DNA of 64,000 nt from the NCBI GenBank assembly GCA_000165425.1, contig CT868022.1:186001-250000 (forward strand), given 5' to 3'. Made by a program: the position numbers and the translations under genes. Shown piece by piece: positions 20,757-37,263 of this stretch. Positions within the stretch are counted from its first letter, which is position 1. The number at the start of each line of letters is the position of its first letter. A model generated the notes under the pieces. That model saw nothing but the letters and a program-made list of their open reading frames with translations, ran no database searches and was not told where the DNA came from. This stretch comes from Paramecium tetraurelia (Eukaryota).

Positions 20757-22531
20757 ATGTCTACTTCCCCTACAGGTGCTCACCGTCATGACAATTCTCC
20801 ATATGTCACCAAAAAATAATTACCACAATATCCCATCCCTCAACAATACCAGCAATCAACCCAGCAACTCAATCAGCCAGATTATTATTAAGATGAAAGG
20901 TATCGTGAATTTGAGGAGCGTGAGGAACAATACAATTATCAAATCCAAAAAATGAATGATTATATTCAAGTATTTAAATCTAATCATCTTAGCAATTGTA
21001 ACATGATTTGGATGTATCCGAACATGCCAAACAAGGCTTTGAATCAGATTACCTTAAGGCAGCCCATGAATTGCAGCTCTACAAGGATCAATTGAAGAAA
21101 TTATACACCATCTACCAACAATAAACTGCTCAATTTGAAACTATTAAAAAGAAAACCCAAGAATCTAATCTAAATGCTGAAAAAACATATGAAAAGCAAT
21201 TTGAAATTAAAAACGATGTGCAAAATCTCATTTTGGACAGAGATCTCCTTATGAATAAACTAGAACTGGGCGATAAACAATACAATTTTGATGTCCAAAG
21301 CTTGACTCAGTAACTTAATGACAAGAATGCGGAGATCTAAGATCAGAGAAAGAGAATCAACGAATTAACTGAATTGAAAAGAAAAGCTGATGAAGAAATT
21401 GCATCCTTGAGATTTACACTTGATCATCAAACTGCTAGATTGGAAGCTGAATTAAGAGAAAAAGTACTGAAATTAGAAGCATTAGACAAACAATTTGCTG
21501 AAGCACTCTATCTCAAAGATAATGAACTAGTTGATGCATTCGATAAGATCAGGATCCTAGAACACGAAGTTAGACGTATCTTAGATTTGAATAGAAGCTA
21601 TGCCCAAGAGTTGAGTATGTTAGCAAGAGACAATAGATTCAAATAGGAAGAAATAGCCAAAGTCAGAGAAGATGCAGTAAATCTATCATATCATTTCTAG
21701 AAACCTGCTATGCCATAGTAAATCAGCGTCTAATCAGGTGGTATGGAACCTAGAATGCCACCAGCTTGGGCTGAGAAATTCCATATCAAAATAGATGCTT
21801 GTTTAGATTTATTTGAAAGGAATCACGCTAAATCTTTGAAATAGTTATGCCTTAATCTTTGGAAGGCAAAAATGGAATTAAAAGCAAGAAACAAATAGAA
21901 CAAAGCCATGGTTGAAGAAAATTCAAATCTAGGCAAAAGTGTAGTTGTAGGCGGAGGAACTGATATGAGAGTAACCACATATTTTGTAGACTCTTTTGTT
22001 GCTGCCATTACTTTTGCCAGAGATGCTATATCTAATGTAGTTTTTGATGTCTTTGTCAAAAGTGTTAATAAGGCAAATAATAAAAAACTCAATTCTTTCG
22101 TTCTATTCTTTGAATCTCTTAAAGAAATGTAACAGAAGTCGAGCAAAGGATTGTGGTTGGCCTTAGAAACCTATGCTAAATTGAGAAAAGCTCTACGTCA
22201 TTCTGTGCCGATCCTTATTGATGCAAAAGTTCAAAGTGGGTTGCTCTAGAAAGTAGAGTTAGCTATGGGTAAATTACTTAAGCATGACATGGATTTCAGA
22301 AATAATATTAACAAATGGTTAGAAGGGACCTTAGCCTTTACTGTTTAAAAGAAGGAAGCAGAAGCTTATGACAAAAATAAGGATTATCTGTTCCTGTTTA
22401 GATTATTAACAGTTAAATATAGAATCAAATTCCCACTGTAAGGAAAGACGTTTGAAGTAGATGTAGATATTGAAACCACTTTAGAACACAAGATTTGTTA
22501 TGCCTTAAGAAAAGTGGTTAAATAACAATGA
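20757..22531 (+). CDS. Coiled-coil protein of unknown function
   Basis: MSTSPTGAHRH start, long heptad-rich code-6 ORF, one tiny intron near 20970-20992, TGA 22529-22531. Confidence 0.75.
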
Positions 22532-22734: not shown

Positions 22735-24991
22735 TCATTTATTGATACTTAAATAGTGACCAGATTTATTTTTGTAGAAGAGTAAATATGGAGTCTCTTC
22801 ATCACTAAAATATAATGGGTTTAATTTTACATCAATTACGAATTTAGATCTTCACTTGATAGTTCATATTTATTAATCTGAGCATCATCAAAGCAAATCC
22901 AAGTTTCTGGTTTAGACATAGATCTTGCATAGCAAGAATAATGACCTGAGTAACTGTTTTTTCCTAAATGAACGATGAATGCGTATAAAATATATTAACT
23001 ATCCATGGCATCCAGATGTTGTTGTTGGAATACTTCTCTCATGTCAATTAAAAACCTGAGAGGTACCTTGGCCAGGATCTTAGTCATTTATTGCGATTGA
23101 GCATCATATTAAAATCTTGTTAGAATATGATATCATACCTTTAAATGGTCATAAATAAGACAGGGGGTAAATCATTCAATTATATAGATTTTTTTATGTC
23201 ATTTGATTTTCGCTAACACTTCTCACACGTAAATTCAATTTTCTCCTCTTCGTAGACCTATGCAATCATGTCCTTCAATTCAGTATATTTATTTAGATGC
23301 AAATCAATTCCCAAAAACTTTTCAATCTGGCCAAATGAAACATCACAATTCGGACATTCAATAACTGATCTATGCGTTCCAAAGAAGATTCTCTCCAATA
23401 TCTCCTATTATTCTTTTGGAATGTATTTAAGGAGATCTTCTAAAAAATGATGTGCAAATTCTCCAACATCCTGTTGGTCATTTGAATTGCAATATGGAGC
23501 TCTAAGCAATCTCTTTAATTCATAGGGTGAACAAAATCCAGACTATTAAAAATTCAATAACATAAACAATTTTCTTAGGGCATTGTATTGTTTGGCTTCA
23601 GGTATTGAGTTTATTAAAATGAATTACCTAAATCTATCAGTCATGTAAAGAGCTTGCAATATACTATTCATAAAACAAGTGTTGGTAAGGTTCTCCAATC
23701 CCACATAATTGTCATGATTGGGTCTGTCATACAAAGAGTCATCAAAGTTCAAATTTTTCAACTTTTGACAATCCCATACAGGATGATCTATCTAATTAAA
23801 TTAATCGAAACTTTTATCTCTAGCAATATGGAGTAATTTAGAAAATGAATCATGGTGAAGTAATTTATTTTAATACTTTTTATGAATAGCATTCATAAAT
23901 CCATATATTTTATCGAAAATCGATCTATCATTCTATCTCAAATCAATTACTAGTCTCAATCTGTCGCACATAATCGTAATGTAATCATCAGTTAATTATT
24001 CTTGACGTCTTGACATCCCAATCATATAAACTTATAAGAGATCCAGAATGCTAGTATTCTAATGCAATTGAGGCAATAATAACGGTAGAATGACCTCCAA
24101 ATATATTTCACTTAATATTAGATAACAGCTTTAGTTACTATTCTGCTTCATCTGCTCTTCCAGGATATCTGTAACTTCCTACAAGATTGAGAGATTTTCG
24201 CTTAAAATACTGTATTTTATAAGTCCCTTAAATATTTTCACCGATTTGTCAGGATTATCAAAGTAATTGATTAAAAAGTAATTTCTATGTTGACTAATAA
24301 TATGACCCAACTTAGTGCTTCCAATTTTTTTGAATAATATATATAGGCAGATTCCCTATTATTCAATAGCTTAATCAAATATAGTGGATATCAGCATCAA
24401 CCAATCATGGTCACTATTCTAATTCGCATTGTCTTTGCATTGCTAAATCAGAGAATCAGCTAGTCTTTTCAGCAACTCATCGTCCTTATAATCTTTATAT
24501 GCCTTCAAAATTAGTTGCAGCAACTCTGGGTTGTAGGTCATGTCTTTAGGACATAATCTACTCACTAAATCAATCACTATTTCTTTATTCAATTACAATT
24601 TTTCTTCAATGGTCCCCTATTATCTAAACTTTCTGATTAACCTCTCTGCCACATATCCTAATTGCTTGAGCAAGGGTCGATGTGATTCAACACGACAATT
24701 TTGTATTACATACTTTGCATACAGTCCAACCATTTCCAAGTTATCCAAAGATTCTGTAATTCTCTTAAAAACCCCCTCATTATAATCCATGCTATAGGAG
24801 GCCTTGTCTGGAAGAAGACCGCCAAAATTTCGATCCAATGCCTTATCCAATATTTAGAAACCATGTTGTGTTTCTGCATGGATGCTCTTGTATAAGTTCT
24901 CCAGTTCAAGTGGAGCCAATCTCCTGTCTTGAGACCATATCAAATTCAATTTTTCTTGGAGACTTTTTGCTTAGATAAATTTCTGATCCAT
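22735..24991 (-). CDS. Ubiquitin-specific protease (peptidase C19, USP35/38-like architecture)
   Basis: Cys box GLENLTNTCFMNSILQAL, QQDVGEF, His box HLGKNSYSGHY..WICFDD, TPYLLFY; helical N-terminal half. Confidence 0.9.
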
Positions 24992-26043
24992 ATATAATGA
25001 TTATTAATTAAGTTCATAAATAGAATAATAACGTGTAATTTGTCAACTTCTAATTATATTTGTTTGAAAAATGATAAATATAAATCATGTCAACAATATA
25101 AAATTCAGACTAATCAACCTAAATAAGAGATAGATATCGCCAAATCTCGAACCTCTTGCTAAACCACCTTAGTAACTATATATTTTTCTATATCTAGAGA
25201 TCCATCATAAGGGTATCTTCAAGCAAAATGCAAATTTTAAAGTCTTGCTAAACAAGAAAACCAAGACCACCTTACTCAACCTTAAGAATGACCAACAAGC
25301 AAAATAGATGACCCTAAAATATTTTTCGAGTTTTGAATTGCTCCAAGACATACTAACATCTAAAATAGATGCAAATTGCTTAGAAGAAATTCGATAATTA
25401 TGTAATTATTTTTCGAATTGATCATAACATTTTATTTTTCATATATTCGATAGTAACAAGTCAAATCACTTTATTATATATAAAATTAAAAGTAAATTAT
25501 TTCATTTCCAAATACTTAGGGAATAAATGAATTAGGACTTTAATGTTTTAATCTATTTCATTTTGGTTTGAACTAACTTTTTTATTTTGCCTAATTGTTA
25601 TTTGATAAAATAGAATTATAATAAAATTTAAGTTTTTAGAGAATCAAAGAATAGAATATATTTTTATTAGTTATAAAGATCTCAAAAGAAAATGATGAAA
25701 CAATAATAGAATTCTTTAAAGATAAATTAAAAGCAGTTCAGAGAAACTAATTTAGTTCTATTTTGATTATTTAGATCTGATCTAATAAGTTTATATAAGA
25801 TAGAATATAACAAATAAAATTTATCAAGGATGTTTTGATTGAATTATATTACAACTAATAATAAATACCTGAAGCCTTTTATAGAGAATATTTCAGAAAA
25901 TGACTTCATTTTATAATAAGAAATTAATAAATTTAATTCTATTCATATGATTTAATTAAAAGTAATATATTTTTTTGATGATCAAATGTATTAAATAAAG
26001 AGAACCTTAATAAATAATGGATCTGATTAATGATTTATTTTAT

Positions 26044-26982: not shown

Positions 26983-27541
26983 TCACTTGTTTTTTGAAAT
27001 GATTTTGGATAGAGGCACTCTTTATTGTTTGTCAACTAAATGTTACTTTAGGAAACTTAATGATTGTTAAGAATTAAGCTTATGATTCACTTCTCTGCCC
27101 AAGGTCTCTATGGATACTTTTTCATTGAATTTCTTGATTACTAAATGAGGATAGATAAGGAAGCTTACTTTTTTTGGATTTGATTTCAATGGGGATAGTG
27201 GTTGCTTATTAAATTTGTGGCATTTTGATGGATTTAATGACTTTCTCAGATAATTTTTCATTCAAATTCCTTTAGAAGGATTCATCAATTTTATTGTTAG
27301 TGAAATGTGATTGAGTGCTACTACTTTGCTCAGGAGGTTCGTCTTCAAATAAATTGGTTTGTTTGGCTTTCAATTATATTTCCTTATCCTTTTTAATTTT
27401 CTGCTTAATTTATTCCTTCTATTATTGTTTTTTTTGGTGTGCTTGGGTTTTCTGCTCGGCCACTTACTTTTTCCTCTCGATCTCGGCTTGCTTGGCTACC
27501 TGAAAGGGTACCATCTCAAGTTCTGAATCACTACCAGACAT
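26983..27541 (-). CDS. Hypothetical basic/coiled-coil protein
   Basis: MSGSDSELEMVPFQVAK...; one 28-nt intron; ends ISKNK*. Confidence 0.7.
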
Positions 27542-27588
27542 TAATAATTAATTATAATAAACAGAATAAATAAATTCATGATAAACAA

Positions 27589-29571
27589 TCATTATGTGTT
27601 AAGAAGGGTTTAATAGTGTTCAATTTGTTCAGCCCAATACCTTTTGTTTTCTGAAATCTATTCCATAAACTCAGCTAACACTGGTAGAATCTATTGAAGA
27701 GTATTATAGTAAGGTAATACCTAGATCACATAAATAGAGATACCATGAAATCTATAAATCCGATCTAGCTCTTTGCAACATTGGTCGTTCTTCTATCACA
27801 CAACATAGTCACTGGAAGTCCCATATCCTTCTCCCTGTCCCCCTATTGCCAAAACTCTCCCAGCACTCTGAAAGTCCACTTCTCATAATTCTTCATTGGT
27901 TTGAAGGGGTTGCTGATATCTGCTGCATGTAGCAGAGTATCAAAGCAGATACCTTTATCTTTGCTTCCTGGATCAAAGTCATTCGAGGCCAATCTTGCCT
28001 TCAACTTATTGAAATCTAATAATGAACTCATTCTCAGACATACCTTTGCCATGCATTGCATTATCTGTACTCAAAATCATGCTTATAGACTTTTCTCTGA
28101 AATACTTGAAATCCTATATTGAGAAATTCGAAAACAGTTCAGTTTCTCGTATACATTTGAATAGAGTAGCAGCATGATGTTGTTCAAGCGAGGATTTATC
28201 ATTGTAAGTCATTGCCAATTCATGTCTTGTGTTGTTCAAAAAGATGTTATTCAATCCTGGATGATCGACATCATGGGCAGCTGCAGACAGCAATAGTATT
28301 GAATAATCTAATTTGGTCAATTTCCCAATTTCTTTGAAATTGCATTTCTCAATAAAGAAATAGACTGTGTGGGTGACATCGAAAGCATGAATTACATTGT
28401 GGTAGAGATTCTCTTTGTGATAGTTCGATCCCAATTGATCCATACATTTCTTAAAAGAATCTGGAGATATCTTTAGAGTGCTAAACAAATGTTCCTTCTC
28501 AAAATAATAGCACATCAGATGAGTTAAGATGGCACTATCATATCTGTCAAATAAAGAGAAGTAATCATAATCCAAATTGAGGATGTTCTATGCGAAGTCT
28601 TGTCTTAATTATTCAGGCAACTTTGTATCGTTTGAGAAGATAATCTCTATTGAACTTGATTTCTTTGATTCCTAAGACGCCATCAACTATTAATTTTGAG
28701 GCTGATTCAACCAACCTAGTGCTTCGCTTTTCCTCCCCTCTATTATTGGCTCATAAACAGTATTATTGGAAATATGAGTGATTCCCCAATTTAACTACTT
28801 GATTATGTCTGAATCTTCAAATTGATCTGCCAGATCACGCATTATTTCGATCACTTTTTCAACCGGTGATCTTACAGTGTATCTTGTGCCCGCATTATTG
28901 ATCTTTTTCACTTGATTATACTATTGTTTGGTTAGTTAAGAGTATTACCTTTCGAAATACTAAAAACAATCTCAAGAATCTGAAGATACCTCTCAACACT
29001 TTACTGATAGTTGTAAATGCGTCGCCCTGTAGATTCAGATCCAAAACTATTAAGACTATGGATGCAACGATTATCAATGCATCAAAAAAGGACCAACAAT
29101 CTGAAAAATATGTCTAAGTTCACAATCAATATAATACAATAAAACCATTTTAAAAGCATCTGATGGATATTTCCAAAACAAATAGAATTAGTATGACCAG
29201 TTCTATTATCTTAGTCACAAATAATGTCTTATCTATGTCGGGATCCTCCTTAGCATCGTTGGCTATTTTTTCAACAAGACCTTACATGTGAATGAGAAAT
29301 TGATGAAGACCAGTAGAGTGAATATCAAAACTAATGCAATTACTGCCTTATCTATCAAAGGGATTCCCTGATGTTGCTAATCAGTAATTCTTTCATAGGA
29401 TGTTCAAATTTACTCATCTGCAATAACGCGATCGTAACCTTCAATATTATATGAAGACCTTCGATCCCCAAAAATATTGGAGATCTCCTTTGAACCTCTC
29501 GGAACAACTTTAGCAGTAGCTTATCCCAGATTCCTATTAGTATCTTCATTTAAGTTCTATTGTTCAGTCAT
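27589..29571 (-). CDS. Class I 3',5'-cyclic nucleotide phosphodiesterase with N-terminal voltage-sensor-like (S1-S4) domain
   Basis: Catalytic motifs YHNVIHAFDV, HDVDHPGLNN, LEQHH, ILSTD, HAADISNP, EFWQQGDREK, QIGF; N-terminal LFVLEISIR, YFSDCWSFFD, KVLRGIFRFLRLFLVFRK; six tiny introns. Confidence 0.9.
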
Positions 29572-29741
29572 TTTAATTATATTTTATAAATTAACTTATG
29601 TTAACTGATATCATGATGGTTGAATTCACCGAAAGAATCAAATTTACATTCAAATCGGTCCCATTAATTGCCTAAACCCTAATTGAATAACTAGTAGAGA
29701 ATAATTCTAACAATGAATATATATATATGCATTTATATTAT

Positions 29742-32693
29742 TCAAAAGTTTTATTTTTATTATTTTTTGGAAAAGTTCCCTTAGATTTCAAAATAACCTC
29801 TAAAATAATGCATAATAATAAAATATATACCTGATTAGACTTGTTTCAGGATATAGCTAAGTCACATTTTCTATTGGCAACTGTTCAGATCTAACTACTA
29901 TGGATAGATAATTCCCTGGTGTAAGGTGATCTATCTTACGAGATACACACTTATCTAAATTAACATAAAGATTATCATTACAATTCGAATCATCCAAAAT
30001 CATTTAGTCCAATTTGCTAATGTCTTTTTCTTGTTTGATTTGGAATTTCCCCAAATCTATTTAAAGCTCAGACAATTTGACTCCTGCTTAAAATATCTGG
30101 AGATACTCCTTCTCAGTGTATTTCATCTCCAAAAGATCGTTGACTAACTTACTGTAAAACTTCCTGATGTTAGAATATATGCATAACTTCCAACTATTCT
30201 ATTTTAATTGAATTATCTGCTAATTCTTGTACTTCTACTTCTTCTTATTACTGTAAGCATCCACCAACTCCTAGCCTATCCTTCGAAGCTACTCCACTGC
30301 ATCCTCATGTAATTCTCTGTTGTTCTCAATCTCCACATAATAAAATGTGTTGGAGAGGTATTTCCCAAATTTGATCAACTTGTTACACTCTAGCTCCTGA
30401 TACTTTTCTCCTAAGAAGTTTAATTGCTATTATGACAACACAATTATTATCTTATTTCTGATGCACACCTCCGATAGAGCCATAGATTCATCCAACTCCT
30501 TCAGACGACTATTGATTAACTTAGTGACCCTCTGCTGTATGTTTGTATCAAAATAGAGATAATTATACAATTCCATAGCCAAATAACGACCCCTATCACT
30601 GACTTGCAATTCTTCATATTGCTATTTAGTAATTAATCCAGTCTATTAGAATGTGGTTTGTTTTGATTCTATTTGATAAGAATCCTTTAATTGATTTCTA
30701 AAATCCTCAGAATTTCTATTCAATTGCATCACAACATAAATTGTCCCTGCAAAAAATTAATCACAAATAGTAGATACTTATTGATAATTCAGTTTAGTAT
30801 TGATTGTTACTGAATCATCACATACAATCAACTCTAATTAATTGACTTAAATATCTTAGCTCTACAAATAACTTCTTAAACTTGATTCCCAATCTTTTAA
30901 ATGCAATACCGTCGACTCCTTCACTCTGTAAACAATTGACTTCCTATCAATCCCCAACTATAACACTTGCCGAATAAATTGCTGAGAAATATGATGAATT
31001 GAAATCAATTAGATGAACTTCTCCTCTTCGATGACTTTCTTATGTTTGTGTTTATTTCTATTCTGTTATGATGAGATTTCGTGACAAAACTCCTGCAACT
31101 CATTTATGTCACTGATTTCACTACTATCAAGACTATCGTAATTCCTTCTGAAAGATTCCATTGAATTGATTGTTCCATCGTTTTGATATCCTGATTAATT
31201 TAGTTATTACTAATCATTCATTTAAATTCTGCAAGGCTACTCAATATTTTCCTTGGATGCCCTCGACTTTTGATCACTCGAAAAACTGCTTTGATGTTGG
31301 CCCTACAAGGCATTTTTCAAAGCTTCTATTGATTTTAAGTCTAAATGAATACTTGAATTAAGTTTGTTTTCACAGTATTTAGAGGTTAAATCTGGAAGCG
31401 CTGATTTGCCTCTCCATTCCTAAGGAAATAATTACGATGAGGCAAAGTCCTTCTCTTTTTGTTATTAAGGCATGATGCCAGACTTACCGTATTGGGAATA
31501 TAGCAAGGTAGATTTGCAACTTTGAAACGATTATGATAATTAAGACATCTCCAATTGCTTGTTTTTCATTACTTGATTAAATTTTAACCTTAAGTCAATA
31601 AGATCTTTAATTATTTTGAAAGCCTAAGTGTTGTCTCTTTACTTAGAAAAAAACAAACATTATTTAAATCCTAGACTAAACACATAGTTTTGAATTTTAG
31701 TGTCAAACCTTCGGTCAATCTCCTTCACTAGGGATAGTATAGAATTGAGTTTATACAATCGAACTGTCCGATTGCACTTTTTCTTCAATATTCCTTCCAA
31801 ATCATCAATGAACTTGTCAATATTTTCACATAAATCAAATAATTCCATGTTAAACAATTCCAACTATTGTTAATTCAAAAAATCGCTTATGTTTTGTTAA
31901 GCCTATTGGCAATAGAGTAGATTGGATGAATATATCTTGAATTGAATTTTCCATCCATCATCAACCAATTTAATTAGGATTTTATTTTGTAATTAGAATT
32001 ACTCGACATCATTCTCTGAATAGAAATGAATAAAATCAATATAAGTCATGGCAATTTACTGGAGGGGATCCGCATCATTAAAATACTCTCGATTAATCGT
32101 TGGTCTCAATTCATGTTTGGGAGTAAAATTAATCGATTGATTATACTCAGTGATCCAGCTCTGAAATAATAGCGTAATTTTTTATTCCTTCCTCTTAGGG
32201 ATCCAGGCGACCACAAAGGACTCATACTGTTCCAGATCGAAATCCTTCAGGTATCCAGTTTACTCCTGCAATTGTCGCTATTCCTTAATCAACTTGTCTT
32301 TCACAAACAAGCAGGTTCCCCTGTATTTGGTATAGAGTTCTTTGTAGTTTTTAGAGTAGAATATAGATGTGTAGGGTTTGTAGGAGACGTGAGTTCGGCG
32401 ATCCTTCATCACGTAGATCATTTTGAATTCCTAGTAAGCTATGTATTCTATTTTGAATTGAGCAACACGCAATTATTCCTCATCGTTGCCTAAGCCATAT
32501 CGATATTTGGAATACCTGCCAAATATATTTCAGTGGGTTCAAAAATGAGATGGGTGTTGGTGTTTTGAAGTATTCCTGTGAGGATGTTGACGAAGTTCAT
32601 CCAGATGAATGTTTCTGTGGACAAGTTGAGCTATTTCTTGTGCAAGATCATGCGATTTGCGTAGGCTCCATTATGGTTATTTTTATGAAACAT
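29742..32693 (-). CDS. Large alpha-helical hypothetical protein
   Basis: MFHKNNHNGAYANRM start, 26-nt intron at about 32490-32515, long code-6 ORFs, terminal 31-nt intron then TGA; internal introns unresolved. Confidence 0.6.
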
Positions 32694-33949: not shown

Positions 33950-35290
33950 CTCGCTTTAAATATTTGAATTTTAATAATATTGTAATATTTTGATCAAGTA
34001 AGTACAAATTCAACCATTTCAAAGTCGAAGGCTGTTAAAACTAACTGATCCTTCCAGCAACTAAAACTACATAAATCAAAAATCAATCTGTCCAATAAAA
34101 ATAGGAATTTGATCAATGATTTGAAAAGAACATTGAGAAATTCACAATCTTCAAAGCAGATTGGGACTGTCTCATTGTTTTAGATTCAAAAACTAGCATG
34201 CTGATTAAAATTCTTGATCAATTAGCAGAGGGAGTGAGTTTGGCAGTCGATCTTCATGAAAGGGATACAATTCAGTATTCTTTGATTCATTAAGAAATTG
34301 GGAGTTATTTCTGCCCAGAATTGAATATGACATGTAAATGAGTACTCATGACTCTTATATGAAGTTAAACATAAAGAATACAAAAGGTCAGTATGGTTAA
34401 AGGAATCCTTTATTGAAAAGAGTAATCTGGTATATGATGAGCACAATAAGTTCTGAAATCAATAATTAACATTAAGAAGTTCGAAGGAGCCTTCTATATT
34501 TCAGAGAGTTTGTTGTAGTTTATTAATTGTAAAATTGGGTATGATTAGAATAATGGATTGTCAAATTCATTGAAAACAATTGTAGCAATATACAGATTAA
34601 GATACAAAACGATTTACCTATGGAAAAACAGTATTTCAGGAAATTTGAAAGCCAATCAATATGAGAGATCTTATTGATGAATTTATCAAATGAACGTACA
34701 TCAAAGAAGCAAATAATTTTATTCTTTAGTTTTATCCATGGAAAATTATTATAGGAAATAGAATATCTGAATATTCAATAGATTGCACAGAGTAAGCACA
34801 TGAGAGTAATTCAATAGAATTACAGAATGATCATGTATTTTAAAAAAATGAATGACCTTATTATCATGAATGTGGATTTAGTTGATAAATATAATTTAAG
34901 ATTTACTAAACTATCATCGTTTAATTTTAAATGCTGAATTTCAAATCAAATAGTAAATACTTACTTGATTGTCATTGATAGGTAATTTTAAAGCCAAGCA
35001 ATAGGCAGCAACTTTGAAAACATTAATTTATTTTTATTATTTAAGTTTCACATCTCTAGTGCATTATTAACCCTATTCAATTAAACTTATCAGCATTAAA
35101 CAAAGGAACCAATATTTTGGAAATCATTTATTGACTACATTCAAATGATAATAGAATCTGGAGTTTCTCAATCATATGATAAATCAATTCACCATAATTA
35201 CAGATGGCAAGCAAAATCAAATCATAGACAATTTTATCTACCCAAAAGCGAGGTGTTAATGTTTTCAGATAAACTGAATTTAATCAAAAC
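33950..35290 (+). pseudogene. Degenerate gene remnant (fragments resembling MORN-like G-Y/G-W repeats)
   Basis: Coding-like purine bias and fragments such as KGQYGQ and GYDQNNG, but frequent TGA stops. Confidence 0.35.
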
Positions 35291-35329
35291 TAAATAATAT
35301 ATTATGATATAACGATAATTAAATTTAAA

Positions 35330-36876
35330 ATGTATTCCCTTTAGAAATTGGTGCCTAATAATAAAACTCAAATCTAACCTGGAGCATTCTCAAAACATCA
35401 GAACTTAAATAAGAGTGTTGATGGCATACTGCCTGTTAATTAAAAATCAGCATCATAACTTTAAACTCAGATCTCAAATGCTAACAAAAAAGAATCGAAG
35501 AGATAGTTAAATAAAAAATAAGAACTATTGTAAATACTAGAAAATGCATAACTTAATTAAGGATAAACCAAATCTGTATCACCAAACACAACACCACAAA
35601 AATAAAAAAGTACCAGAAAATTGAATTTTAATCTTATTACAGAATAAGATGCACACTTTCTTAATTCTAGCAATGCCATGGCCAACATGATTATTGAGAA
35701 TATACTTAATAAAGATGATTATTATGACAAAATTCGTTAAGAAAATCAGGATTTGAAAGAGTTATCCATTTAATTGCAATTAAGTCTGAATGAATAGAAA
35801 AAGAAGTAATAAATATTGGAGTAAACTAATAAAGATCTCAATCAAAATCTACAACAAGAACGTCAACTCTATCAGAATCAATTAATCAACATAAATGATC
35901 AAATTTAATAGATGAAATCAATGAAATTTACTCTTCAGAATGAACAAAAGAAAACTGAATCCCTAACTAAGCAGTTGTAGGATTAAATTGCAATCAACAA
36001 TGGCTTAAAATCATTTATTTGTGATAATTGTTTAATCTGCATAGAGTTCCTATCCTTTTTTTAGAAAATTGTGGAACACTTCCAACCCTAATTGATATTT
36101 GCTTATGAATCTCTTATCTAGTTATCGAAACATTCAACGGCCTTTATTTTGGATTTCATTTCCAAAACATAAAATCTCAATTTGCCTGCCTTAAGGAATT
36201 GTTTATTACCTGAAGAATTTGATGTGAATGGATTCTTCATGGCTGTTGAATCTCTAAAGTTTAATTAATCCTCAGAATCATCCTTTAGAAATAAAAGCCA
36301 TAATGCTTCAAAACATTAGATTTTAACAACAAATAACTCATCCCCTCCTCATGAATCTCCAAAACCATTGAGAAATGTATCATTGCAAGAACAATTTAAC
36401 TAATTTCTTAACACTAGTGACCCTTAAATAGGTAGCCCTTATTTTACTGGTTTAGAAATAACAGATAAATAAGGAATTTTAAATAAAGACATGAATTAAT
36501 TGCCTTTACAATTAAATGCAGCTAAGAGAGCCACTTAAGAGACTAGTGAAAATTCATTTTATTTTCAATCATTTAAATAAACCAATGAGGATGAAACCAC
36601 TCAGTTGGATTAGCAAGTATTAAGAGATTAAGGCAAATAAACAAAAAGAAATAAGGAGAACTAGCAATCTTATTGTTAATATGTGATTGCAAAGTATGAT
36701 TACAAAGCACAAAAAGTAAAGTTATTTAGTGATATTGGTAGGATATAGATTTAAGCTTTAAGAAAGGGGATCAAATCAAATTGTTAAAGAAAACAACTAA
36801 TGGATGGTGGTATGGAGAAGATAAGAATTAACTCAAAGGATACTTTCCTCATAATTTTGTTTAAGCAATAGGATGA
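35330..36876 (+). CDS. Coiled-coil protein with C-terminal SH3 domain
   Basis: YVIAKYDYKAQK|DIDLSFKKGDQIKLLKKTTNGWWYG...GYFPHNFV; intron 36716-36741. Confidence 0.88.
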
Positions 36877-37263
36877 TTGTAATTTAATAATTTTGATCTT
36901 TTTATCTAAAAACATCTTCATTAACAATAATATGCATGTCTTTTTAAATTGATAATTTATTACCATATTTGTTTCTTACTTGCATTAATCTAGAGTTGTG
37001 GTATATAATAGCATATTTTCAGGGTTACATCAAAATAATTATAGACTCAGAGAAGATTTTAGATAAAGATTGAGAATTCTTTCTTTTGTAATCTAATATT
37101 AAATCTAGTGATGCATGCTCGACTGAAATCTTTAGAGGAAAGAACTATTTGAATTTCAATCTCCAAATTAACATTGAGGGTTGCAACTACTTTCTAACTT
37201 TTTACAAAAATCCCTTATTAACATTGCCTAAAACTTATATATAAATAAGTATAATAAATTATA

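Follow-up and report, generated by a model that had tools for sequence, protein, structure and literature searches.

A gene on the minus strand at 29571-27589 of the 64,000-nucleotide (nt) stretch of Paramecium tetraurelia contig CT868022.1 analysed here (contig positions 186,001 to 250,000; "the window" below) encodes an integral membrane enzyme, made up of a cytosolic N-terminus, a pore-less S1-S4 voltage-sensor domain (VSD), a basic helix that extends S4, a helical hairpin specific to the family, and a full class I cyclic-nucleotide phosphodiesterase (PDE). A sequence-only reading of this DNA had proposed a pore-less sensor and an intact class I PDE in one gene, and that architecture is fully supported. 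That membrane voltage controls the PDE through the sensor is the reading favored here, at a probability of roughly 0.55. To our knowledge, the only enzyme family that is directly driven by a voltage sensor is that of the voltage-sensing phosphatases (VSPs). It is an even bet that the present family would be a second class of voltage-sensing enzymes, in which potential directly gates cAMP or cGMP hydrolysis by way of S4, linker, and hairpin, and an old one, spread across ciliates, dinoflagellates, chromerids, probably apicomplexans, rhizarians, and oomycetes.

The window is rich in AT (GC 0.23-0.37), and the region of the gene is open only under translation table 6, in which TAA and TAG encode Gln. 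With six introns removed, the minus strand is a single open frame of 610 codons plus TGA, from an ATG at 29571 to a TGA at 27591-27589, in seven exons (29571-29414, 29389-29286, 29262-29138, 29113-28949, 28920-28044, 28015-27744, and 27720-27589). Every intron is of the form GTA...AG, with lengths of 24, 23, 24, 28, 28, and 23 nt. Intron 1 (29390-29413, GTA..AAG) has an in-frame TGA inside it and is still present in the RNA contig described below; its junction (..VIADE/ITDQ..) is unbroken in homologues. Removal of intron 2 (29263-29285) is required by the frame, and the resulting FSFT/SNDAKED junction is likewise unbroken in homologues. Introns 3 (29114-29137), between S2 and S3, and 4 (28921-28948), right behind S4, are precisely absent from an RNA-seq contig of run X3. 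Introns 5 (28016-28043) and 6 (27721-27743) both fall within the PDE domain, at junctions (AMHGK/DFNKLK and IDFM/VLPYYN) that homologues also carry unbroken. The model has the same ends as the gene of the sequence-only reading, and it contains all peptides quoted there: S1 AVIALVLIFTLLVFINF, S2 IELVILILFVLEISIR, YFSDCWSFFD, S4 SKVLRGIFRFLRLFLVFRK, the linker stretch SPVEKVIEIMRD..LNW..VYEP, the metal motifs with their His and Asp, and the Gln.

With the largest exon as query, 18 of 1363 candidate proteins reached E ≤ 0.001. Eight of these are annotated Paramecium proteins of 592-609 residues (three from P. pentaurelia, two from P. sonneborni, and one each from P. primaurelia, P. tetraurelia, and P. 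bursaria), and they are the sole members of the 18 in which the Pfam families PF00233 (PDEase_I) and PF00520 (Ion_trans) occur together. All six exon junctions are continuous in all eight. Overall identity of the gene model to them ranges from 52.5 to 92.6%, the closest being a P. pentaurelia protein (~93%). Together with the tiny introns and the ciliate code, this identity would assign the window to the aurelia group of Paramecium. In the nearest homologue the sensor and catalytic domain are 94 and 95% identical, respectively, to those of the window protein, and in P. bursaria 58 and 56%, with lower values for the N-terminus and linker.

The RNA-seq contig of run X3 (2051 nt) covers 27427-29529 with introns 3 and 4 precisely removed, so that S2 is connected with S3-S4, and S4 with the linker. 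The reads of two stranded oligo-dT runs all map to one strand of the gene, covering 26 and 29 of 30 bins, with empty or minimal troughs at the predicted gene ends (29587-29667 and 27562-27642); the raw 58-nt reads of these two runs gave no splice joints at the listing threshold. For introns 1, 2, 5, and 6 the support is frame and homologue agreement only. Elsewhere in the family, transcriptome-derived single open reading frames (ORFs) of Oxyrrhis, Protocruzia, and Mataza are collinear across sensor, linker, and PDE. Transcripts do not split the sensor and PDE parts; the X3 contig and these three foreign ORFs hold both. Sensor and class I PDE are encoded by one gene, because a single open frame is left after removal of six tiny introns, the junctions are common to eight Paramecium proteins, and both the RNA contig and the transcript ORFs of other species agree. 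Two side observations concern this material. The X3 contig (27427-29529) mixes spliced stretches with others that are unspliced or genomic, and contig evidence from this run therefore needs care; and the S3-S4 exon (28949-29113, minus strand) is 165 nt long and in phase, so that skipping it would preserve the frame.

The first of the transmembrane segments, S1 (residues 68-86; 29290-29346, minus strand, as are all features of the gene), has a hydropathy of 2.69, contains no acidic residue, and is a helix in both structure models of an orthologue described below. S2 (residues 101-124; 29153-29224) carries E108, F115, E118, and R122 in the pattern E-x6-F-x2-E-x3-R; S3 (residues 131-155; 29036-29110) carries a W-x-x-F-D motif with D140; and S4 (residues 165-184; 28949-29008) carries K167, R170, R174, R177, R183, and K184. 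Hydrophobic segments by the Kyte-Doolittle scale occur only at S1, S2, and S3, while S4 is amphipathic. Beyond residue 190 hydropathy never exceeds 0.91, and no S5-pore-S6 is present. Against Pfam cut-offs of 25 bits for Ion_trans and 24.8 bits for PDEase_I, all six Paramecium homologues scanned match Ion_trans at 40.3-47.5 bits, over profile positions 2-121 of 241 only. The S3-S4 exon of the window protein hits Ion_trans by itself with an E of 1.1e-4, beyond what chance would give, though below the cut-off. The pore-less S1-S4 of the sequence-only reading is thus borne out both by hydropathy and by an Ion_trans match limited to the S1-S4 half.

Conservation was counted over 44 aligned family members, those outside Paramecium being 24-38% identical to the Paramecium protein. 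In S2, the outer acidic residue (E108) is kept in 41/44 and the Phe (F115) in 39/44; the E118 column has Glu in 42 and Asp in the other two, and the R122 column has Arg or Lys in 40/44. The D140 column of S3 has Asp in 43 and Glu in one. In S4, R174 is conserved in 43/44, R177 in 44/44, and K/R184 in 42/44, while R183, in register at +9 from the R174/R177 pair, is found in 27/44 and R170 in 23/44. Within Paramecium, P. bursaria included, the charged residues of S4 are all invariant. Conservation of the S4 charges, which the sequence-only reading had taken as a point to be checked, therefore holds for the core arginines R174 and R177. The predicted charge-transfer centre (S2 Phe and Glu, S3 Asp) is intact. 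A one-residue insertion in the Paramecium S4, V168 (28997-28999, minus strand), was also observed; it is absent from 36 of the 44 members and shifts K167 off the Arg register.

A sequence search of the PDB with the sensor of a P. tetraurelia homologue gave 63 distinct sequences at E ≤ 10. The best single-region matches were repeat IV of Cav3.2 (24.2 bits), Hv1 (3wkv; 24.2 bits, E 4e-4), and Ci-VSP (4g7v; 23.7 bits, E 5.8e-4). Cav repeat IV was considered as the nearest relative and rejected: the whole-chain E of 1.2e-10 for Cav3.2 sums four repeats, and the best of these ties with Hv1 and Ci-VSP. Judged from its sequence, the sensor is a bona fide member of the voltage-sensor superfamily with no clear nearest branch.

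AlphaFold2 was used to model the nearest orthologue, both at full length with 44 aligned relatives and as sensor plus linker alone. The full-length model has a mean pLDDT (predicted local distance difference test) of 80.4, with 70-89 over S1-S4, which form four long helices; the pLDDT of the shorter model is 75.6. In both, the S4 helix runs on into the linker as far as residue 191 (helix 159-191, orthologue numbering). A Foldseek search with the full-length model found PDE catalytic domains only. With the sensor model, the best match was the Ci-VSP sensor (4g7v_S; probability 1.00, E 0.036, target-normalised template modelling (TM) score 0.58), and all 46 rows listed are voltage-sensor or six-transmembrane channel proteins. 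In a VIA-align comparison with 48161 chains, the top matches were again 4g7v_S (Z 13.3, root-mean-square deviation (rmsd) 3.2, 128 of 136 residues) and Cav1.2 repeat IV (Z 13.3, rmsd 2.4, 115 residues). A Protein Atlas search with orthologue residues 40-245 gave top scores of 0.75-0.79, lead level at most, and the named clusters were Ion_trans. The predicted structure superposes best on the Ci-VSP and Cav sensors, so that the structural match to a VSD called for in the sequence-only reading is present, and the composition of the Foldseek list, the VIA-align Z scores, and the sequence evidence together favor a sensor fold.

Behind S4, the models continue the helix into a basic juxtamembrane linker (residues 185-201, YNQVKKINNAGTRYTVR; 28870-28920), in which the two KK positions are Lys or Arg in 21/44 and 25/44 members. 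Between it and the enzyme is a predicted two-helix hairpin (residues 202-242, SPVEKVIEIM..LNWGITHISNNTVYEP; 28747-28869), with helices at 202-216 and 220-234 in the AlphaFold2 model and a family consensus of SPxExVLxIL...WxIxxIxSxxLYE. Its Pro is conserved in 34/44, Glu in 32/44, and Val in 40/44, and it is kept across ciliates, a dinoflagellate, and a rhizarian, with no Pfam family or PDB sequence match. Conservation of this kind within the family is what a coupling element would be expected to show. The linker had been described in the sequence-only reading as PDE8-like, and this did not hold up: the 140-residue linker gave six PDB hits, none of them a PDE and all at E of at least 0.25, and PDE8A matches the catalytic domain only. 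Neither a REC nor a PAS family was found by Pfam in the window exons or the six Paramecium homologues. A resemblance of the hairpin to UCR2 of PDE4 was considered and is not claimed here: long-form PDE4B can be aligned with the full-length model over ~430 columns, but at an rmsd of 8-10, with a sequence match that begins only at residue 281.

The class I cyclic-nucleotide PDE domain (approximately residues 357-589; 27655-28404) is split by introns 5 and 6. Its motifs are YHNVIHAFDV (28375-28404), AAAHDVDHPGLNNIF (28240-28284), LEQHHAA (28168-28188), LLHAADISNP (27906-27935), and KSQIGFIDF (27747-27773), so that the window protein holds HNxxH, HDxxH, ExxH, and HAAD. In class I PDEs, His, Asp, and Glu residues bind metal and a Gln clamps the substrate; across the 44 sequences none of the metal-binding His/Asp/Glu columns varies, and conservation of the Gln column is 90% or more. 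The two large exons of the window reach 136.4 and 90.6 bits with PDEase_I, and the homologues 246-268 bits over the full 238-position profile. The closest PDB sequences are Schistosoma PDE4A (2.1e-53), human PDE1B (3e-53), and then PDE4B (2.6e-52), with PDE9A (4e-46) and PDE8A (8e-40) more distant. The orthologue model superposes on PDE4D with a target-normalised TM score of 0.89-0.94 at 30-33% identity. An intact class I PDE, proposed earlier from the metal motifs and the Gln, is confirmed in that these are present and both exons pass the PDEase_I cut-off, and the domain is predicted to be a complete enzyme that hydrolyses cAMP or cGMP.

When 1.84 billion cluster representatives were searched with a profile built from the eight Paramecium proteins, 16201 proteins matched at E ≤ 0.001, mostly ordinary PDEs. 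Among the best 149 (150 less one query), 41 are matched by a sensor profile made from Paramecium sequences alone. Fifty relatives were picked from the best rows for collinear or sensor matches and scanned with Pfam; 42 of them pass the Ion_trans cut-off, and the match ends by profile position 132 of 241 throughout. Named members include Ichthyophthirius, Protocruzia, Chromera velia, Mataza sp., Oxyrrhis marina, Tetrahymena thermophila, and the oomycete Globisporangium splendens. The oomycete came from a search started with the Chromera member, in whose listing PF00233 and PF00520 occur together in 25 of 120 rows; no Toxoplasma protein is among the rows listed from that search. By these matches, the sensor-PDE architecture is widespread in SAR (stramenopile, alveolate, and rhizarian) protists, and the family is under purifying selection across distant lineages.

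The history of the fusion was examined with a FastTree phylogeny of 215 PDE domains, 103 with a sensor and 112 without; 79 rows too short upstream were left out. The sensor label changes seven times on this tree, as compared to a mean of 70.8 when labels are shuffled, and none of 500 shuffles was as low. The sensor fusion is thus strongly clustered on the inferred PDE tree. The tree does not single out one origin of the fusion: the only split that holds all 103 sensor rows (support 88) also takes in 29 without a sensor, GAF-type and soluble PDEs included.

In the mechanism proposed here, a change in membrane potential would move S4, whose two invariant Arg would face the conserved Phe, Glu, and Asp of the charge-transfer centre. 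The continuous S4-linker helix and the hairpin would transmit this movement to the catalytic domain and so switch cyclic-nucleotide hydrolysis, in a manner analogous to the sensor and phosphatase of Ci-VSP. Swimming in Paramecium is set by membrane potential, cAMP, and cGMP, and the enzyme would tie voltage directly to cyclic-nucleotide breakdown.

Several results weigh against control of the PDE by voltage, or against the gene model on which it is built. The ladder of charges in S4 is sparse, and Kv and Nav sensors have a longer one: in the register of R174 and R177, the residues at -3 and +6 are Gly and Leu, both uncharged, whereas K167 and R170 are each displaced from that register by one residue, with Arg at position 170 in just 23 of the 44. 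The gating charge may therefore be small. When the window's exons are scanned singly, the S3-S4 exon falls short of the Ion_trans cut-off (21.9 bits), and neither exon 2 nor exon 3 matches a Pfam family; among the 50 collinear relatives, seven have no Ion_trans match and one is sub-threshold (20.2 bits). No Foldseek match of the sensor model reached E ≤ 0.001, and designed (de novo) four-helix bundles likewise score Z 12-13, so that the fold by itself is not discriminating. At the RNA level, only two of the six introns are removed in the X3 contig, with the other four retained, and the contig enters the next gene downstream. Positions 29020-29100, in the S3-S4 exon, are near-empty in both oligo-dT runs (depths 0 and 0.02), with the neighboring exons covered; this gap could be chance at low depth. 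No joint for skipping of the S3-S4 exon is among those listed, and the X3 contig contains the exon. No electrophysiology or enzymology was found for any family member.

The main rival is that S1-S4 is a voltage-insensitive device for anchoring or targeting, or a sensor of lipid, ion, pH, or ligand (compare the sensor-like domains of TRP proteins), with the PDE constitutive or otherwise regulated, for example by phosphorylation at an N-terminal RRSS site. This is possible, though appreciably less probable than voltage control. The sparse and partly out-of-register S4 would fit it, as would the relatives without detectable Ion_trans (7/50), and TRPM8, TRPV5, and other sensor-like domains that are not voltage-gated are among the fold matches; the conserved RRSS is an alternative control point. 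However, Phe and Glu of S2, Asp of S3, and two Arg of S4, which make up the charge-transfer set, are near-invariant at 24-38% identity, which would be needless for a mere anchor, the sensor is conserved as strongly as the catalytic domain, and its sequence passes the Pfam voltage-gated channel model, which goes beyond fold resemblance.

It is improbable that the sensor itself conducts protons or other ions, in the manner of Hv1 or as an omega-current, with the PDE as an appendage of a small channel. The Hv1 match (3wkv, 24.2 bits) is as good as that to any single Cav repeat, but S1 (AVIALVLIFTLLVFINFSF) has no acidic residue, nor does the family S1 consensus, and the hydrophobic Phe plug is present in 39/44. 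Weaker still, and close to negligible, is an artefact in which a small membrane-protein gene and a soluble PDE gene have been read as one. In its favor, just two of six introns are RNA-confirmed, read coverage has a gap over the S3-S4 exon, and the contig continues into the gene downstream. Against it, removal of the intron at 28921 puts S4 and the linker in one frame, and there is no stop, start context, or intergenic spacer between the halves. Sensor, linker, and PDE are moreover collinear in eight independent Paramecium annotations and in transcript ORFs of Oxyrrhis, Protocruzia, Mataza, and Chromera.

Among known systems, the proposed voltage-controlled PDE resembles the VSPs. Ci-VSP and TPTE/TPTE2 likewise have an N-terminal pore-less S1-S4, a basic juxtamembrane linker continuous with S4, and a cytosolic enzyme, and the Ci-VSP sensor is both the top structural match of the Paramecium sensor and a significant sequence match (E 5.8e-4). 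The enzymes differ: VSPs carry a PTEN-like phosphoinositide phosphatase and C2, acting on a membrane-lipid substrate, whereas the Paramecium protein carries a class I PDE with a soluble substrate. No phosphatase family was found by Pfam in the six homologues or the window exons, which places the protein outside the VSP/TPTE family; and since its sensor matches VSP no better than it does Cav or Hv1 (23.7 vs. 24.2 bits), it looks like an independent fusion. Voltage-gated cation channels have S5, a pore loop, and S6 after S4; the Paramecium protein has none of these and is not a channel. Proton selectivity of Hv1 depends on an Asp in S1, and this acidic selectivity residue has no counterpart in S1 of the window protein, nor in an S1 consensus drawn from 11 or from 44 relatives.

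Other comparisons concern the combination of a sensor with cyclic-nucleotide signaling. The ion-channel-like adenylyl cyclases of Paramecium, Tetrahymena, and Plasmodium consist of S1-S6, a pore-like region, and a class III cyclase. They likewise join a channel-type transmembrane module to a cyclic-nucleotide enzyme and can be viewed as a counterpart on the synthesis side, whereas the sensor-PDE stops after S4 and carries a PDE; the cyclase family PF00211 was not found by Pfam in the Paramecium proteins. PDE4 is regulated by the soluble modules UCR1/UCR2, whereas the Paramecium protein has no UCR (PF18100) and has a membrane voltage sensor at its N-terminus instead. In the sperm Na+/H+ exchanger SLC9C1, which is among the fold matches (8pcz), a voltage sensor likewise governs a non-channel, but it acts there on a transporter that shares its membrane and has a cyclic-nucleotide-binding domain, whereas the effector in the Paramecium protein is an enzyme domain of soluble type.

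The pairing of these two domains is not in itself new. Toxoplasma TgPDE4 and TgPDE16 have been described as PDEs with an "ion transport domain," in passages that give a partial PF00520 and a C-terminal PF00233 (Vo et al., Moss et al.; PMC7720076, PMC8809380). The terms used in both papers are ion transport or cation channels, the word "voltage" is absent from each, and the passages on TgPDE4 and TgPDE16 report no functional test of them. Compared by description only, this Pfam pair matches the Paramecium family; kinship is presumed, and Chromera, an apicomplexan relative, has a family member. In Euplotes, PDEase_I and Ion_trans genes are reported, in the passage concerned, to be "always adjacent" (PMC8670190), and such a pair may be this fusion, called as two genes. 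For the proteins of Paramecium, Tetrahymena, and Chromera, both Pfam families are already listed in public annotations. Full-text searches, subscription-only papers aside, found no paper that names a voltage-sensing, voltage-gated, or voltage-dependent PDE or a VSD-PDE, and in a term search the word "phosphodiesterase" occurs zero times in a review of voltage-controlled enzymes and in a survey of voltage-sensor sequences. The remark in the sequence-only reading that no characterised VSD-PDE was known agrees with these searches, with the qualification that the domain pair was already in print for TgPDE4 and TgPDE16, without reference to voltage. What is new is that the domain is read as a voltage sensor standing alone, its gating residues conserved, and that the family is so broad across SAR.

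If voltage control is correct, the voltage sensor would be a general-purpose actuator for enzymes, and the enzyme would supply the missing degradation arm in Paramecium, where membrane potential and cAMP/cGMP have long been studied in connection with the beating of cilia. It would provide excitable single cells with a route from voltage to cyclic nucleotides that is independent of channels and calcium, and would suggest a role for the "ion transport domain" of apicomplexan PDEs. A compact genetically encoded tool could also be envisaged, which would lower cyclic nucleotides by voltage.

The cytosolic N-terminus contains the motif GDRRSSYN (residues 35-42; 29446-29469), which can be read as a basophilic-kinase-type RRxS site; R-R-S-S is invariant in all eight Paramecium homologues, P. 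bursaria included. It is reminiscent of the PKA site through which long PDE4 forms are activated, and could allow cyclic-nucleotide feedback on the PDE.

A small neighboring gene at 27122-27540, on the same strand and starting ~50 nt past the PDE stop, has no Pfam family; its read depth in the two runs is severalfold greater, at 12.6 and 23.8, as compared to roughly 1-13 across the bins of the PDE gene. On the other side, a 913-residue table-6 frame (29788-32529, minus strand) ends ~215 nt upstream of the PDE start and has no Pfam match at E ≤ 0.001, and the same is true of two table-6 frames on the plus strand, of 590 residues (35180-36952) and 523 residues (20960-22531). A long open frame at 23084-25042 (minus strand) contains a ubiquitin C-terminal hydrolase domain (UCH, 81.2 bits).

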